This document shows, in pieces, positions 20,095-56,030 of a DNA stretch of 64,000 nucleotides; within the stretch, counting starts at the first letter, position 1, and each line of letters begins with the position of its first letter. Position numbers and translations under genes: made by a program. The stretch comes from Candidatus Borrarchaeum weybense. Lineage in GTDB: Archaea; Asgardarchaeota; Sifarchaeia; Borrarchaeales; Borrarchaeaceae. The stretch is taken from positions 288,799 through 352,798 of the forward strand of contig JAHQJS010000005.1 in assembly GCA_019057385.1 (NCBI GenBank), read 5' to 3'. Under the pieces are notes generated by a model, which made no database searches, was not told the origin of the DNA, and worked only from the letters and a program-made list of their open reading frames with translations.

Positions 20095-20125
20095 CTAAAC
20101 TCCCCCTTCTATTTTTTTTATAGAT

Positions 20126-20372
20126 GTCTCGCAAGAAGACCCCCCCAACTAGTTGGGGGATGAAGTGCGTTTGTTCACTTTCACAATGGTCTACAATCCT
20201 TAAATAGGTATGTGCACCTAGAGAGTAAGTAGAATTGAGCTGAGGTCACACTCGCCAGTTCTCAAATTAACATCAAGTTCAGGGCAGGAACTGCCCGTTG
20301 AGCCTGTTTGACATGCTCCGCTGGGAGATGAATGATTCAGGAAGCCATTCAACTTGTTGGATGGTAGTTCAC
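20126..20372 (+). mobile_element. ORF-less IS200/IS605 miniature element retaining an omegaRNA-like 3' region
   Basis: Left-end palindrome CCCCCAACTAGTTGGGGG (20142-20159) in CAAGAAG...GATGAA context; GGGCAGGAACTGCCC hairpin; right-end GAAGCCATTCAAC-TT-GTTGGATGG-TAGTTCAC. Confidence 0.8.
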
Positions 20373-42854: not shown

Positions 42855-44035
42855 CCGCTTTCAATAAAACAAGGTGTTAACTCTCTCATTACCAATTGTT
42901 GACATAAAATTGCTTGTTTTTCTCGTCATTTATAGATGATCTTGCTACATTCATGTTGTTCTCGAAATCGTCTTACACAGACATCGTTTCTAATGCTAGC
43001 TACGGTATCTTTTTTGGTAAATCACGCGCGTAATTTCAAAAAAAAACAGTTGATTATAGCTCTATTGACATCTATTTATCATCGTTCGCAAAAATAAACA
43101 TCTGCGCTCCTTATTACAGTGACCTGACAACACTTTTTTACAGGATATGAGCGCTCTTGCCTTGAAACCTTCATTGCGCGACGGTAAAAAAGATACATAT
43201 AAAAGTGCTAAATGCGTAATATTTATATTGCTTCGCTGTATCACATAATTCCCCTCTATCTGAAATATCAATTTCGGATTTACTTAACTATGAGGGGACT
43301 TTTACCAATTGGATGCAACATACAGACCATAGTGCGTCTGTAGGTGAAGTAATTGGTTGTGAGTTCAACGATGAGCTTAAGGGACTGCGGATCTCAAGTC
43401 TCCTAATGACAAAGACTTGCCGATAGAATTTGGTAGTCTTTGTGAAGGCGGATACTGTGGTTCGCAGCGCGGGTTCGCGCACCAGCACCCCCGTCCACTG
43501 CCTTATGAACTCTGGCAGTAGCTGCGGCGCCTCAACGGACTCGGGCTGAACCTTGAGTGATTAGATCCAACTTCCACAAACTTATAGTTATTACTTTTAC
43601 GTATATCAAAGTAATTACCGCGATATACTTGCCTTCATCCCTCTTGTGGAGGAAGAGGGAACTGCTTTTCATGAGAATGTGGTCGTAGAAGGACTTAGTG
43701 GTTATGGTGAACACATTATCATAACTCGATTGAGTCTCGTTAAATGAGCAGGCTCGCTTGTGGCTCCGATACCGGTTGATCCTGCCGGACCCGACCGCTA
43801 TTGGGATGGGATTAAGCCATGCAAGTTGTGCGCTCCTAGTTATGAAGGAGAGCGGCAAAAAGCTCTGTAACGTGTAGTTAACCTCTCCTCAGGACGGGCA
43901 TACCCTCGGGAAACTGAGGTCAATTCCCGATAGTTGATTAGGCCTGGAATGGTTTTTCTTCCAAAGGTATCTTCTCATGCGAGGATACTACCTGAGGATG
44001 GGACTGCATCTGATTAGGTAGATGGTGGGGTAACG

Positions 44036-46435: not shown

Positions 46436-47257
46436 CGTAATTAATTTATCCTTTAAGGGCCAAGCTTGAGTCTGCTCATGCGAAAAGACTGCAATCGGGA
46501 ACAATATGATGTGAACCATAAATCACCAGGTTATACATGAAATGCCATATTTTTAGCCGCTTACATAGGTGCGAATGGAACCAGGGGCTCATTAGTGTCT
46601 GGATACATACGCCATCTGGTGGATGACTTGGTTTGGGCACTGAGGAAGGTCGTGGCAAGCTGCGATAAGCCTGGGGTAGGTGCATGCTGCCTTCGAACCC
46701 AGGATTGCCGAATAGGACTTCCAATTAAGGATTAATAACCCTTAATGATCCGTAAGGATCGGGAACCCCGTGAACGGAAACATCTTAGTAACGGGAGGAA
46801 AAGAAACCAATAGGGATTCCCTTAGTAAGGGCGACTGAACGGGGAAGAGAGCAAACTGAACCCCTTAAGGATGACTTAGGGGGGATGTGGTGTGGTAGGC
46901 CTGGTTTCGGCCTACTCAATGAAGTTGAAATGGTCTGGAACGTCCCGCCGTAGAGGGTGAAAGCCCCGTAAACGTAAATTGAGAGGTCTTATGACCAGTG
47001 TCCTTGAGTACTGTGGGCTGGATACCTCGCAGGAATCTGAGAGACACTCACTCTCAACTCTAAATATGTCCCAAATCCGATAGTGCACTAGTACCTTGAG
47101 GGAAAGTTGCAAAGTACCGCGAAAGCGGGGTTAAAAGAGCCTGAAACCAGATGGTAACAGACGTGCGCGGCCCGAAAGGGTAGAGTCTCTTTGAAGGAAC
47201 CCGGAGTAATCCGGCAGTACGAAGAGAGAGGACCAGGGTTGCGCAATCCGTCTTGAA

Positions 47258-50519: not shown

Positions 50520-50642
50520 AGGTAAAAGCTGGCTTGACTGTATTCTGACCAGTAAAGAATGCAGGAACGAAAGTTGGGCTTAGCGATCCTCAATACCTTA
50601 TCAGTGGGGGTTTGAGGTGACAGAAAAGTTACCCCGGGGATA

Positions 50643-50756
50643 AATGCGTCAGTTTTGTGAATATAGAAAGTGTGTAGACAAAGCTTAGTAAAGTTGTATG
50701 GGTAATTTAGCTTTGACGATTGTACAACTTTATGAGCGTCTGCGGCGCATTCCCAA
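50643..50756 (+). other. 23S BHB intron, 114 nt, between A2450 and A2451 equivalents
   Basis: GGGATA|ACAG; GGGA/TCCC, ATGCGTC/GGCGCAT. Confidence 0.92.
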
Positions 50757-50872
50757 ACAGAGTCGTCGCGGGCAAGAGCCCATATCGACCCCGCGGCTTG
50801 CTACCTCGATGTCGGCTCTTCCTATCCTCGATGTGCAGCAGCGTCGAAGGGTGGGGTTGTTCGCCCATTAAA

Positions 50873-50904: not shown

Positions 50905-51059
<155 letters not shown>

Positions 51060-51502
51060 ACAGGTTGGATTCTATCTGCAAGGACTGCCGGTGGTCTGAG
51101 GGTAGGGTGTTCTTAGTACGAGAGGAACGGAACGTCGGAGCCTCTAGTGTACCAGTTGTCCGAAAGGGCAGAGCTGGGCAGCCACGCTCTAACCGATAAG
51201 AGCTGAAAGCATCTAAGCTCGAAGCGGGTCCCGAAAAGAGACCACCAATCACCAACAGAGGAGTTAGGGTGACCGTCCGTAACTGTTGGGGACGAGGACT
51301 CCAGGAAAACACTGGTTTGATAGAGCTGAGGTGTAAGTGTCGAGGGTACAGAGATGGTACTCTTAGTATTGTACACTCGCCTAAATCCCTCCAACCTCTT
51401 GGTCATGTACATAACCGTCTCTTCGGAGATAGTTGTGTCGTGATTAATGTTGTTGGGCCGAGGCACTCAGCCTGCAGCCACTAAACGTCCGAGTGTTCAG
51501 AC

Positions 51503-51524
51503 AGAACCCCGGTCCATGCAAAAC
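51503..51524 (+). repeat. 22-bp direct repeat, copy 1 (23S 3' processing stem)
   Basis: AGAACCCCGGTCCATGCAAAAC, identical at 53656-53677. Confidence 0.95.
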
Positions 51525-51758
51525 TTATGTAGCGTAATGGCGGAAGTGTGGTGTTTCATGTTATGTATGAGTCCTTCTACGATACGACAGGGAGTTTACT
51601 CCCTATTTTTTTTGGGTGTATCGTATGACGATGTCATAAAAATTACTATAAAAACATATATTCCTAAGTTTATCAGCATAATTGATCCAAACTTGGATCT
51701 GTTATCCGTCACAAAAGCCTTTTCTATCTTCTCTCCCCATCCGACATTATCATCTTTA

Positions 51759-52631
51759 CTAAGATAGCATCTTAATCCGATTTAGATAAGAATTATAATC
51801 TATGTCATCCATTCGAAAAAGTTCCCATAGTATATCATTGGCGACTTGTTTACATTCCTCTGCTTCATCTGAAGTAGGTCTATACTCAGAATGTATAATT
51901 CGATTACGAATCATTCTGAGGTTATCATATCTTTTGAACTCCTCTGTTGGGATAATTCCTTCATTTTTTAAATATCGCATTTTTTTATGAACAGTCCATT
52001 CTCTATTGAGTTTCTCTATTAAGTCCTGAAATACGCCTTTTTTAATAAAATATTCTTCTAATTTTATTGAAAAGAAAATCTCAAGCGTTATCCAGCCAAG
52101 CAAGAAACAATTAGTATATTTCTGTTTACCCCATTCGGAATAGCACTCATAGAACGTGAATATTGGAATTTTAAATTTAGAATGAAAGATTCTTTCTGCA
52201 AAATCAAGTATTACTTTCAATTCATCTATTGTAAGAATTTCTTTATAACCTTCTCTCATATCTGGTGAGACATGTAGCCATCCGCGATCTATAAATGGAG
52301 TTACTTCGAGATTCTTCAGTTTTTTTGTTATTGGGTCGAAATTTACTTCTGCAAGCTCTTTTGGATATGTATTTCTGACTCTATACTTAAGCAAAGTTGT
52401 CGATAGAAAAATTGAGTTTAGAACTTGAGCAGAATAATCCCTATCATCTTTATCTGTACTTAGAAAGCCACTTTGATGAATGAAAATCTTGTCGTTGTTA
52501 AAGAGAAACTCGTAAAAAGTTTTTCCAACAAGTAAAGTGTTTCTTACGTCATATATGTCTATTTCTTTTTCAAAGAAAAGTGGAGGAAAAAAATACGTGC
52601 CAAAACCCTTTATAGACTCTGCCATAAGCAA
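51759..52631 (-). CDS. HEPN-domain protein (putative RNase)
   Basis: W..LE helix and LRMIRNRIIH (RxxxxH) motif. Confidence 0.7.
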   Translation of the reverse strand: MLMAESIKGFGTYFFPPLFFEKEIDIYDVRNTLLVGKTFYEFLFNNDKIFIHQSGFLSTDKDDRDYSAQVLNSIFLSTTLLKYRVRNTYPKELAEVNFDPITKKLKNLEVTPFIDRGWLHVSPDMREGYKEILTIDELKVILDFAERIFHSKFKIPIFTFYECYSEWGKQKYTNCFLLGWITLEIFFSIKLEEYFIKKGVFQDLIEKLNREWTVHKKMRYLKNEGIIPTEEFKRYDNLRMIRNRIIHSEYRPTSDEAEECKQVANDILWELFRMDDIDYNSYLNRIKMLS

Positions 52632-52789
52632 TCAACTATTTCTGATTCTGATAGCTATTCTTAAGATATTATTGATTATCTTTTTTTGAACATTAACTTT
52701 TTGTGATCCTTATATACTCGTTTTAATCATTATTACTGCCTAAGTTCACCAAGAAACAAAAATATTACAATTTATCGCAGGAGAATTAT

Positions 52790-53380
52790 ATGGACGTTAC
52801 TGAAACCATTTCTGCAGAGTTAGCATATTTGGCGGGCGCTGCTGAAGATGCCTACCTAGGAACAAATAGAGAGAAAGGGTACGAATTTGACATGGAATCA
52901 AAGTCTAAACAATGGCTCGAATGTGCTATAGCCCCAAGACTTATAAGATTAATAAAAAAACCGGTGAGAGTTCGAAAAAGGACTACAAGACCGTATTATC
53001 GCCTTAGAATATGGAATAAAGCATTGGTCACAACTCTAGCATCCATTAGAGAAATGCCTTTACAAGTTCTAAATTGGTCCGAAGAGTTTCAACTATTATG
53101 GGTACGCGGATTCATAGACGCAGAAGGCTCTGTAACACAATCAGGAGATAATCAACCAATGCTATCCGTTTACAACAAAAATCTCCAAAAACTACAAATC
53201 ATTGAAAAAATACTATCCCCTTACAAAATCAAAGCCCGCTACTATAAGCCACCTAAAAGGGATGTATGGCAACAGTATTTTACAGGAAGAAGCAATCTAA
53301 GTAAACTTTCTGAAATGGTAAAAATAGAACACCCTGAAAAAAGTAATAACTTACGATTATATCTCAAACAACCGCTTTAA
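52790..53380 (+). CDS. Free-standing LAGLIDADG endonuclease
   Basis: LAYLAGAAEDAY and WVRGFIDAEGS. Confidence 0.88.
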   Translation: MDVTETISAELAYLAGAAEDAYLGTNREKGYEFDMESKSKQWLECAIAPRLIRLIKKPVRVRKRTTRPYYRLRIWNKALVTTLASIREMPLQVLNWSEEFQLLWVRGFIDAEGSVTQSGDNQPMLSVYNKNLQKLQIIEKILSPYKIKARYYKPPKRDVWQQYFTGRSNLSKLSEMVKIEHPEKSNNLRLYLKQPL

Positions 53381-53655
53381 TTCTTTAAAAAAAGTCCATA
53401 TCAGTCACTATCCTCTTCAGCAGCCTTTTTCGCCATTGTTTTTTCGTCTTTAAAACCATTCATCAAGTTTTTTTTTTGATCCTTTTTTACTTGGGAAAAT
53501 CTCACAAGTTCCTGTACATTCATTTCTAACAACGAGCCTATTTCCTTCATAGTGCAAAGAATGTGGAGACGTCACATTCTGGGAGATAGGGGGTTTCGCT
53601 AACTAAATCTGCTTTCTGTATTCAAATTTCTTAAAATGACTTGAAGGAAATATAA

Positions 53656-53677
53656 AGAACCCCGGTCCATGCAAAAC
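53656..53677 (+). repeat. 22-bp direct repeat, copy 2
   Basis: Identical to 51503-51524; partial similarity continues downstream. Confidence 0.95.
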
Positions 53678-53734
53678 CTGTATAGCAAACGCGTAAGACC
53701 TATGTATGACCTTACTTCTCAAATTTTTGAAAAA

Positions 53735-54433
53735 CTAATATTTGACTTTCTGCAACAGATGCTCGTTTTTCGGATGAACAAACACGTATACTCCTGAGTG
53801 TAGAACAGGATTGCCCGTATCGAAATCACGATCGCTGCGACATAACGCATATTTTGTGACAGCTTCTGTCATGAAATGCGGATAATCAAAGAGTTCTGGT
53901 GTAGCAGTTGCCCCATAGAGTTTATGTTCGCCAATGTACACCAGATAACGGACGGATGAACATTCCAATACATTTTGCAATGGAAAATGCTGTGGAGCCC
54001 AACAGGAAAGCACCACATCAGAATGGCATTTTTTAATCGAATTGAAAACATCCATTTTCTCAACTGGGAAGTGTTTGCCCTGAGTTAACATTTCCCATGA
54101 GTAATCATCGGTGGCTGTTATCGAAAGATAATCCGAAAGATAGTATGAAAGTAATCCATCGCCTGCGTGTATTTCCAGCAGATTCTTGGGATTGAGAATT
54201 GCGAGTAGGTTGATCAGGTCTGCGATGAACTCCTGTGAATAGATCTGATATATTCCATGTTCTGCACAATACCACGGTCTGCCAAGTTCAGTTTGCTCTA
54301 CATACTTGATGAAATTCACGACTGAAGAATATGAACGAAGTGGATAGTTAATATTCGTCTGTAGGTATCTCATTAACTTACGTAATTGACTTTTTGTACC
54401 CAATCTTGAACTTATGCGATCATATGAGCTCAT
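53735..54433 (-). CDS. Putative class I SAM-dependent methyltransferase-like protein
   Basis: LLEIHAGDGLL motif I, ATD, DVVLSCW.P. Confidence 0.6.
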   Translation of the reverse strand: MSSYDRISSRLGTKSQLRKLMRYLQTNINYPLRSYSSVVNFIKYVEQTELGRPWYCAEHGIYQIYSQEFIADLINLLAILNPKNLLEIHAGDGLLSYYLSDYLSITATDDYSWEMLTQGKHFPVEKMDVFNSIKKCHSDVVLSCWAPQHFPLQNVLECSSVRYLVYIGEHKLYGATATPELFDYPHFMTEAVTKYALCRSDRDFDTGNPVLHSGVYVFVHPKNEHLLQKVKY

Positions 54434-54490
54434 TTTGTTAGCCTTTAAGATAGCATGATAATCAAATATTCTGTTGACTATCCCGTCTTA

Positions 54491-54736
54491 TCATACTTCG
54501 TTGATCCATCCCAACTTTTTCCATTGTTCTTGTCGCTCATTTCGGTTTCGTAAAATAAGTTCTTTGATTTCCTCGGTAGATAGTTTCTCGGTAACGGATT
54601 CAATTTCGGTAAGTGAATTGCCATGGCCTATTCCTAAGGCTCGAAGAAAGGTAATTACTGTTTGGACATCTAATTCTCGAAATAAGACATCAAGTCCTTT
54701 ATTCAAGGCCCTATATTCTTCTTCACTTAATGTCAT
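54491..54736 (-). CDS. Putative antitoxin partner of the upstream PIN gene
   Basis: G...L...L......FL.....G.G. pattern; overlaps the PIN gene stop. Confidence 0.6.
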   Translation of the reverse strand: MTLSEEEYRALNKGLDVLFRELDVQTVITFLRALGIGHGNSLTEIESVTEKLSTEEIKELILRNRNERQEQWKKLGWINEV

Positions 54737-55208
54737 TCAGGTTAACCTCTTGAAGAAAGTCTACAGGATTTCTTATGTATATAGTGTATTCTTTTTTCTT
54801 CAAAACTCTTTCGAGCGAGTCAACTTTTCGTGTGAGTTCATCATCACAAGTTATGAAATAGTCGGCATGTAAGAGCACAGCTGATGCTATGTGATAACAA
54901 TCAAATAGATCGGAAATGCTACATTTCTGAGAAATGTACAAACCTAGTTGCTCAACTGTCTGATTAAAGGGTATGAATGCCTTTACATAGGGTTCAATAG
55001 AATTCAATACCGTATCTTTTTTCTGATCGTTGGCTATGCCACAGAGTTCAGCATCTAAGGTTTCTGAATACAGTAAATCAAATTTCGCTTCTCGTACCAT
55101 TTTCAATAGAGTAAGTGCTGCGGTCGCTTCAATCCGTATTCGCGCTTGTCGTAAATCATCGTAGGGTCTACACATCACGTTTGTGTTGAACATGACTCGC
55201 AAGGGCAT
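54723..55208 (-). CDS. PIN-domain (VapC-like) protein
   Basis: CRPYDD...RIRIEA, D..HIASA, FITCD. Confidence 0.8.
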   Translation of the reverse strand: MPLRVMFNTNVMCRPYDDLRQARIRIEATAALTLLKMVREAKFDLLYSETLDAELCGIANDQKKDTVLNSIEPYVKAFIPFNQTVEQLGLYISQKCSISDLFDCYHIASAVLLHADYFITCDDELTRKVDSLERVLKKKEYTIYIRNPVDFLQEVNLNDIK

Positions 55209-55331
55209 ATTTCTCCACTAAATAACATGTGCTATATAATGTATATATGTACCACGTTCTTTGATAAGATACTAGAAGAGAGCAAAGAAATCTTAAATTA
55301 GTCAAAAATGGTATGGTTATCAGTGATTTGA

Positions 55332-55517
55332 ATGAGTAATGAATTATTAGAAAAGATCACCAATATTGAGAAGTTGCTGATGGAAATAGACGCTAAAATA
55401 GACCATTTTTTAGGATTTGAGGAATTAAGTGAAGAGGAAAAAGAAGAGGTAAGAAAATTACGTGAGGAAGTAGGAAAAGGCGAGTATGCAAGCTATAACG
55501 AGATTTTTAGTGATTAA
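55332..55517 (+). CDS. Small acidic antitoxin-like protein
   Basis: EELSEEE......EEV.KGEY.S..EIF. Confidence 0.6.
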   Translation: MSNELLEKITNIEKLLMEIDAKIDHFLGFEELSEEEKEEVRKLREEVGKGEYASYNEIFSD

Positions 55518-55815
55518 TATGACTATAATAACAATCAATCCGCAAAGAATAATTAACAAGATTGAAGAACTATTTAAGATCGCTTTGCCTGACACAATAT
55601 TCGATTTAAGGTATGATAATGCTTCTGATGTCCTTGGTATTCGATTCCGAGAGTATTTAGATAGTATAAGTGATGCGATTGATGATGAAGGAATGGTTAT
55701 TAGTATATACGATCCGAAAACAAATGAAATCGTAGGGTTAGAAATTTTAGGCCTCAGAGATCATCTTAAGGAATGGAAAATTGATAAAGTAATTCCTTCT
55801 AGCAAAAAAAGTTGA
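55486..55815 (+). CDS. DUF2283-like protein (start may be ATG 55519)
   Basis: YD..SDVL.I.F...D....EIVGLEIL. Confidence 0.65.
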   Translation: MQAITRFLVINMTIITINPQRIINKIEELFKIALPDTIFDLRYDNASDVLGIRFREYLDSISDAIDDEGMVISIYDPKTNEIVGLEILGLRDHLKEWKIDKVIPSSKKS

Positions 55816-56030
55816 TAAGTTCATTTTTTCTGACGAATTCTTGAAAGAAGACCCCCATTGACAAGGTTTCTCTAATAAATTAGTGATTTTACCCTACACT
55901 TTTGTGGGGGTCATATATATGACAATGTCAAAACTACACAAAACTGTAGTTGGTTTTATTAGGAAGGAATTCGGTTTTTTCATAAAGAAATACTGCAAAA
56001 TGTACACCGTACTAGTGTCTGGAACAGGAG

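Follow-up and report, generated by a model that had tools for sequence, protein, structure and literature searches.

A free-standing LAGLIDADG nuclease gene of apparent intron ancestry behind the 23S rRNA gene of Candidatus Borrarchaeum weybense

In collaborative homing, a free-standing nuclease gene adjoins a gene that carries an intron without an open reading frame (ORF), a pairing seen in cyanophage S-PM2 between F-CphI and the group I intron of psbA, which has no ORF (PMC6083498), and the mobE nuclease of phage T4 also homes in trans (PMC2790892). Here we describe a related layout in the Asgard archaeon Candidatus Borrarchaeum weybense, within a stretch of 64,000 nucleotides (positions 288,799 to 352,798 of contig JAHQJS010000005.1, assembly GCA_019057385.1; hereafter the window) that holds the one ribosomal RNA (rRNA) operon of the 4.18-Mb assembly. 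Behind its 23S gene, two copies of a 22-bp strand of the 23S processing stem flank a gene for a HEPN protein and a gene for a LAGLIDADG endonuclease. As with F-CphI and mobE, the nuclease gene stands free beside a gene in which an ORF-less intron blocks the probable target site. Unlike the phage cases, the setting is a cellular archaeal chromosome and an rRNA gene, the intron is of the protein-spliced bulge-helix-bulge (BHB) type, and the LAGLIDADG enzyme can be traced to the same intron, with cleavage here a prediction.

The WHO elements at yeast FBA1 offer a second parallel, in which a LAGLIDADG gene follows its target gene, a resistant 3' end precedes it, displaced 3' fragments come after it, and repeated events build clusters (PMC7282813). 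Displaced fragments of the target's 3' end likewise lie downstream of the nuclease gene in the window, where we call them relics R1 (the second copy of the 22-bp repeat) and R2. Resistance would come from an intron here and comes from allele divergence in WHO elements; moreover, our relic comprises just 22-31 bp, R1 starts ~750 nt past the 2451 site and not at the cut site, the locus has no zinc finger or intein-like part, and most Asgard relic arrays contain cargo and no nuclease. The monomeric LAGLIDADG enzymes of archaeal rRNA introns, I-DmoI and I-Tsp061I, resemble the window nuclease in fold, size and two-motif layout, and its family also normally resides in a 23S BHB intron, but identity is ~20% and the gene here lies outside the intron. 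The insertion site of I-DmoI and I-Tsp061I differs from 2450/2451.

The nearest published Asgard case is HeimM2 of Ca. Heimdallarchaeum, which occupies the interval from the 16S gene to a tRNA and was interpreted as a site-specific integration (PMC8813620). It shares with our locus an rRNA-intron-type homing endonuclease gene and cargo (an LRR gene in HeimM2) beside an Asgard rRNA gene; unlike at our locus, no cognate ORF-less intron or trailer relic is mentioned in the accessible part of its description. In Pyrobaculum, an intron-encoded enzyme co-converts a neighbouring hairpin intron (PMC4496867). Our literature search, which was incomplete, returned no account that pairs a free-standing nuclease with a BHB intron in rRNA, nor any of arrays behind Asgard 23S genes.

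The 196-aa nuclease matches LAGLIDADG_3, and its structural model (pLDDT 93.5) has I-DmoI as the closest solved relative (Foldseek E 3e-10), with the two LAGLIDADG helices and acidic catalytic residues of a monomeric enzyme. Both catalytic acids, D20 and E112, are invariant in 13 sequences, and dN/dS relative to its two closest relatives is 0.16-0.22; by these measures the gene is intact and under purifying selection. It is predicted to be transcribed from its own promoter, and the same promoter-like segment (window 52699-52734) precedes a nuclease gene of a different family at locus L050. The initial annotation of this DNA had called the nuclease intron-less, and its ORF indeed lies outside any intron, 2.1 kb downstream of an ORF-less cognate intron.

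That intron identifies the family. Relatives of the nuclease (~42-59% identity) are encoded within a 23S intron inserted after GGGGATAA, between A2450 and A2451 (E. coli rrlB numbering), in 13 loci (L053, L055, L057, L059, L063, L067-L072, L213 and L216), and both ends of the window's 114-nt intron are homologous to the ORF-bearing introns of these relatives at the same site. At L051, from another lineage, the nuclease gene also stands free behind the operon (83-84% identical), accompanied by an ORF-less intron. Compared with their counterparts at L051, the window's nuclease gene (84%) and intron (93%) are better conserved than its flanking genes (72-76%) or trailer (67%), which fits co-transfer. 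Two Loki-type genomes, G200 and G302, have free-standing family members 1.7-1.9 kb past the 23S helix-99 anchor and introns of 31 and 30 nt in the 2451 site. In the family tree, the free-standing genes of the window, L051 and L062 group together (support 98/99) inside a set of intron-encoded genes, and monophyly of this free-standing clade with the Loki-type free copies was rejected (approximately unbiased test, p-AU 8e-61); a single origin being rejected, there were at least two escapes from the intron. At the level of sequence, these relationships show a nuclease derived from the 23S A2450/2451 BHB intron and relocated ~2.1 kb downstream.

As background we used Asgard loci picked by 23S alone, 66 of them for site 2451 and 60 for site 2601. 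The 2451 site was empty in 58 of the 66 and held an ORF-less intron in eight, none with this nuclease downstream, whereas it was interrupted in all four readable loci with a free-standing copy (114, 114, 31 and 30 nt; Fisher p 5e-4, or 0.02 if counted as two origins). A second enzyme family repeats the pattern. At L050 a different LAGLIDADG gene directly follows the same trailer, and its family resides in the 2601 intron (L053, L059, L081, L094); of its free-standing members, each of the three that can be read (L082, L092, L093) has an ORF-less intron at 2601, compared to 3 of 60 in the background (p 5e-4). Specificity is reciprocal, with 2601 filled and 2451 empty at L092 and the opposite in G200 and G302 (loci L083 and L084). 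Every free-standing copy that can be placed lies within ~2.2 kb of the 23S end. The initial annotation's suggestion that the nuclease could mobilise ORF-less introns in trans thus gains support, with the A2450/2451 family and its 114-nt intron as the probable pairing. Coordinates are collected in Table 1.

Table 1. Positions of the features discussed, in window coordinates
Feature	Position	Strand	Remarks
16S leader arm	43682..43697	+	pairs with native 23S trailer 51568-51583; duplex fold
Internal transcribed spacer (ITS) arm of 23S processing stem	46562..46590	+	BHB-like; partner of repeat copy 1
Predicted nuclease target region, E. coli 23S ~2437-2470	50629..50776	+	split by intron; cutting inferred
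ORF-less BHB-type intron, 114 nt, A2450/A2451	50644..50757	+	boundary ambiguous by 1 nt
ORF-less intron, 122 nt, site 2601	50939..51060	+	site of second nuclease family; absent in G002
Repeat copy 1	51503..51524	+	native 3' strand of 23S processing stem
Native trailer	51525..51642	+	16S-leader-pairing arm; terminator-like hairpin and T run 51589-51612; TATGACnnTGTCATA palindrome 51624-51638
HEPN protein, 290 aa	51759..52631	-	C-terminal DUF4145 domain, RNxxxH motif; putative RNase, cargo
Nuclease promoter and leader	52698..52789	+	TATA-like CTTATATA, GGAGA ribosome site; 88% identical in L051
LAGLIDADG endonuclease, two-motif, I-DmoI-like, 196 aa	52790..53380	+	free-standing; D20, E112 intact
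Remnant 3' end of convergent gene	53380..53437	-	also in L051, as the terminal part of an LRR gene
Repeat copy 2, relic R1	53656..53712	+	22-bp stem core (53656-53677), 31 bp at 90%, then decayed or foreign tail
Older cargo	53735..55815		232-aa ORF; antitoxin and PIN toxin pair; 61-aa and DUF2283 pair; absent from G002 at the locus
Relic R2	55888..55932	+	terminator tail and palindrome of older trailer

The repeat that drew attention to this locus is real: the 22-mer is exact in both copies, which are its only two matches in the genome allowing up to five mismatches (chance expectation ~1e-7). Of the similar, diverged sequence said to follow it, the part up to 31 bp (90% identity) stands; beyond that, the shared TATGTATGA is marginal (p 0.03-0.04 for two of the trailers compared, no significance for three others). 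Copy 1 occurs with closely similar trailers in the congener G002 and in contigs L048 and L050, and because congeners lacking the genes carry both copy 1 and the trailer, copy 1 is the native trailer stem and copy 2 a relic. Copy 1 pairs with the ITS arm in the predicted 23S processing stem, which contains a BHB-like motif (-48.9 kcal/mol), and the trailer downstream base-pairs with the 16S leader and continues into a terminator-like hairpin. The tail of R1 has neither terminator nor palindrome. L051 has two relics of its own trailer.

An empty site exists within the genus. The congener G002, 91-94% identical over the 23S end and trailer, has no cassette and lacks approximately window 51643-55886; its trailer continues into window sequence after ~55930, joining directly to what follows R2. 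The HEPN and LAGLIDADG genes bracketed by the repeats over ~2.1 kb are both real, and the variable region is larger than first described: the island spans 4.2 kb with two relics, the HEPN-LAGLIDADG cassette is its front part, and it is polymorphic within the genus. The nuclease is absent at this locus in G002 and was not found in a search of four congeners. Two other origins were considered and rejected: copy 2 as a piece of a second operon, as the assembly holds only one, and the cassette as a trailer intron, as its ends form no BHB.

We favour, with a probability of about 0.6, a reading in which an escaped 2451-intron nuclease homes in trans on intron-less alleles and carries the 23S 3' end and cargo along. 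The emptied 114-nt intron would interrupt the probable recognition site and so protect the single rRNA operon. Once brought together with a relative lacking the intron, the enzyme would cleave that recipient at its 2451 site, and repair, using 23S homology on the left, would copy the intron, 23S 3' end, trailer, cargo and nuclease gene over 2-3 kb. The right-hand side could rejoin at a trailer relic or through microhomology, displacing the recipient's old trailer downstream; the 22-bp copy 2 may be such a displaced tail. The parts of this scheme differ in strength. The kinship of the enzyme and the blocked sites beside free-standing copies make it likely that the target is the 2451 region and not the trailer, and the evidence leans slightly towards homing in trans being in operation, while a role for copy 2 as second homology arm seems doubtful.

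Several points weigh against this scheme. Because any toxic nuclease needs its site blocked in order to be kept, the association shows protection and not homing; the counts behind it are small and kin are not independent, and eight loci with an ORF-less 2451 intron have no nuclease within 10 kb. Copy 2 offers just 22-31 bp of homology, and, with no intact recent trailer after it, records no recent event. Co-conversion in phage T4 has been reported to ~2 kb (PMC2790892), a limit at which the 2.1-kb distance lies. The state of the 2451 site in G002 is unreadable, structural constraint may account for part of the high identity of the intron to that of L051, and cutting, expression and transfer are all predictions.

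The main rival remains that the nuclease is a passive passenger, captured independently of its activity into a hotspot behind the 23S gene, where it persists only beside a blocked site and no longer drives the spread of intron or cargo. Such a hotspot exists. Of 83 Asgard loci, 23 had same-direction copies of the 23S end or trailer in the next 7 kb downstream, compared to 3 of 83 for a matched control region and 1 of 83 in inverted orientation; this comparison relies on the matched control, a random-window control in the own genome having given 14 of 150. Up to six relics lie within 10 kb at some loci. None of the relic-bearing loci has a nuclease of either family, and neither has any of 96 loci picked only by rRNA. 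Gene capture behind Asgard 23S genes does not need the nuclease, and copy 2 is one more relic of the common Asgard kind and not a special replacement part. Passive capture would also account for the varied neighbours of the nucleases and for G200, where the blocking intron is a different one ~5 nt upstream. It does not readily explain purifying selection over three free-standing copies, the confinement of placeable copies to co-conversion range of the 23S end, or the recurrence of the pattern in two enzyme families. We regard it as unlikely, though it deserves the most weight among the alternatives. In line with homing, a relic lies downstream of the nuclease in five of the eight loci with a free-standing copy.

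The initial annotation had instead proposed an element that targets the trailer and supplies a replacement stem; in a specific form of this model, the HEPN and LAGLIDADG genes would insert as one element, site-specifically, at the 22-bp stem core in the manner of an att site. The exact direct repeat invites this view, a collapsed repeat would still yield a BHB stem (-42.9 kcal/mol), and the relics of the window and L051 both begin near the BHB. The layout is also akin to the tandem ssrA islands of Dehalococcoides, in which a dedicated serine integrase acts at a fixed crossover (PMC3146451): in both, cargo blocks are stacked behind an essential RNA gene with short direct repeats of its 3' end between them. 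An integrase island would, however, contain a recombinase and leave a restored att core in the empty site. The island has no integrase, the nearest tyrosine recombinase on the contig being ~270 kb away, and G002 joins at R2, 2.2 kb beyond the 22-mer. Relic start points vary widely across Asgard, as do relic ends, unlike those of ssrA islands, and relics are common without a nuclease. The enzyme family points to 2451, and the 22-mer is also identical in the L051 lineage, so its exactness need not mean recent duplication. Copy 1 and the trailer, which pairs with the genome's own 16S leader, are native, nothing marks the cassette as the source of the working stem, and we consider this proposal improbable. 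A domesticated role without spread between genomes, as an addiction factor that retains the intron by killing intron-losers or as an RNA-binding helper, would suit a single operon and a selected enzyme with intact catalytic residues, but is very improbable given the patchy distribution of the gene among congeners and the fact that the host's splicing endonuclease removes BHB introns, so that no maturase is required (PMC4496867).

If the homing scheme holds, it would explain in concrete terms how BHB introns without an ORF are spread and maintained in rRNA genes of the archaea most closely related to eukaryotes, with a named enzyme whose predicted target is in the peptidyl-transferase centre (A2451). 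Collaborative homing, as described for phages, would then extend to the chromosome of a cell and to an intron spliced by protein, and would be tied to an integrase-free gene-capture site present behind 23S at about a quarter of the Asgard loci sampled. A more tentative generalization, which we think rather unlikely as a whole, is that across Asgard intron nucleases repeatedly move behind 23S, replace the entire 23S 3' end and trailer of relatives by cutting their peptidyl-transferase-centre DNA, spread ORF-less BHB introns and load defence cargo into the gene arrays at the rRNA tail, as one engine of these integrase-free arrays. If rRNA 3' halves do swap between lineages, 23S-based phylogeny of these groups would be affected.

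The HEPN gene is best read as interchangeable, hitch-hiking cargo of defence type encoding a putative RNase. Its product matches DUF4145 above the cut-off, and the R-N-x-I-x-H motif (R242, N243, H247) is invariant in four sequences; matches to Csx1 and Csm6 HEPN domains are weak, with E 0.1 or more for the structural hits to Csm6 and HEPN, and the N-terminal half is poorly modelled. Homologues are rare, and the single homologue locus read has an unrelated context far from rRNA. The idea that HEPN and nuclease form one cassette with fixed partners did not survive comparison with close relatives, in which the slot ahead of the nuclease is filled differently, by DUF4238 in L051 and by other neighbours in L062 and L083.

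Further observations concern introns and nucleases of this kind. At L083:728 and L193:201 (both reverse strand), introns of ~30 nt are shifted upstream by roughly 5 nt relative to the usual 2450/2451 position. L102, L158 and L160 have ORF-less introns of 145-148 nt at ~2450 and no free nuclease within 10 kb, while L067 of the same genus has the ORF-bearing form; this is the ordinary path of ORF loss. The window's 2601 intron is 87% identical in L051, and no 2601-family nuclease was found in the genome. More distant LAGLIDADG genes occur downstream of 23S (L085:2843-3388, G127), between the 16S gene and a tRNA (L088:9516-10082, G029) and just past the 16S gene (L089:287-886, G088). Among viral contigs, neither the 2451 intron nor a close nuclease relative was present, only one 33% fragment, so no carrier was found.

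Relics and trailers showed additional variation. Four to six same-direction relics lie within 10 kb at L151, L142, L145, L148, L187 and L127, and extra copies reaching back to helix 99 occur in G120:C8 and G109:C70. No leader relic was seen in the region upstream of the 16S gene. At L048:683-981, a 1.3-kb metagenome contig that matches window 54651-55335 (PIN module) at 97.5% identity passes straight into a fragment of the 23S 3' end (starting at window 51313 and short of 27 nt through a deletion), followed by a full trailer and then another gene; this is either a newly displaced tail in a closely related strain or an assembly chimera. L050 (G122:C45) shares 90% identity with the window over the 23S end and trailer, yet its bin belongs to another family (f23) and class, probably through mis-binning or else reflecting transfer of the 23S tail. 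Right after the last trailer relic of L051, 256 nt (L051:13612-13865) are 88% identical to window 20117-20372.

In every relative, a TATGACnnTGTCATA palindrome comes after the rRNA terminator; it also closes several relics (window 51624-51638 and 55918-55930; L031, L048, L050, L051), and ~12 further copies are spread across the genome, some behind TATA-like boxes. It may be a regulator site or a recombination site; its place at the end of the trailer and of some relics would suit the latter, and the copies elsewhere in the genome speak against it. Both rRNA genes of the window, 16S and 23S, contain many insertions. A large one occupies the helix 101 region (51345-51459), where it halts the Rfam 23S match at 51398, and its counterpart in L051 is 35 nt shorter.
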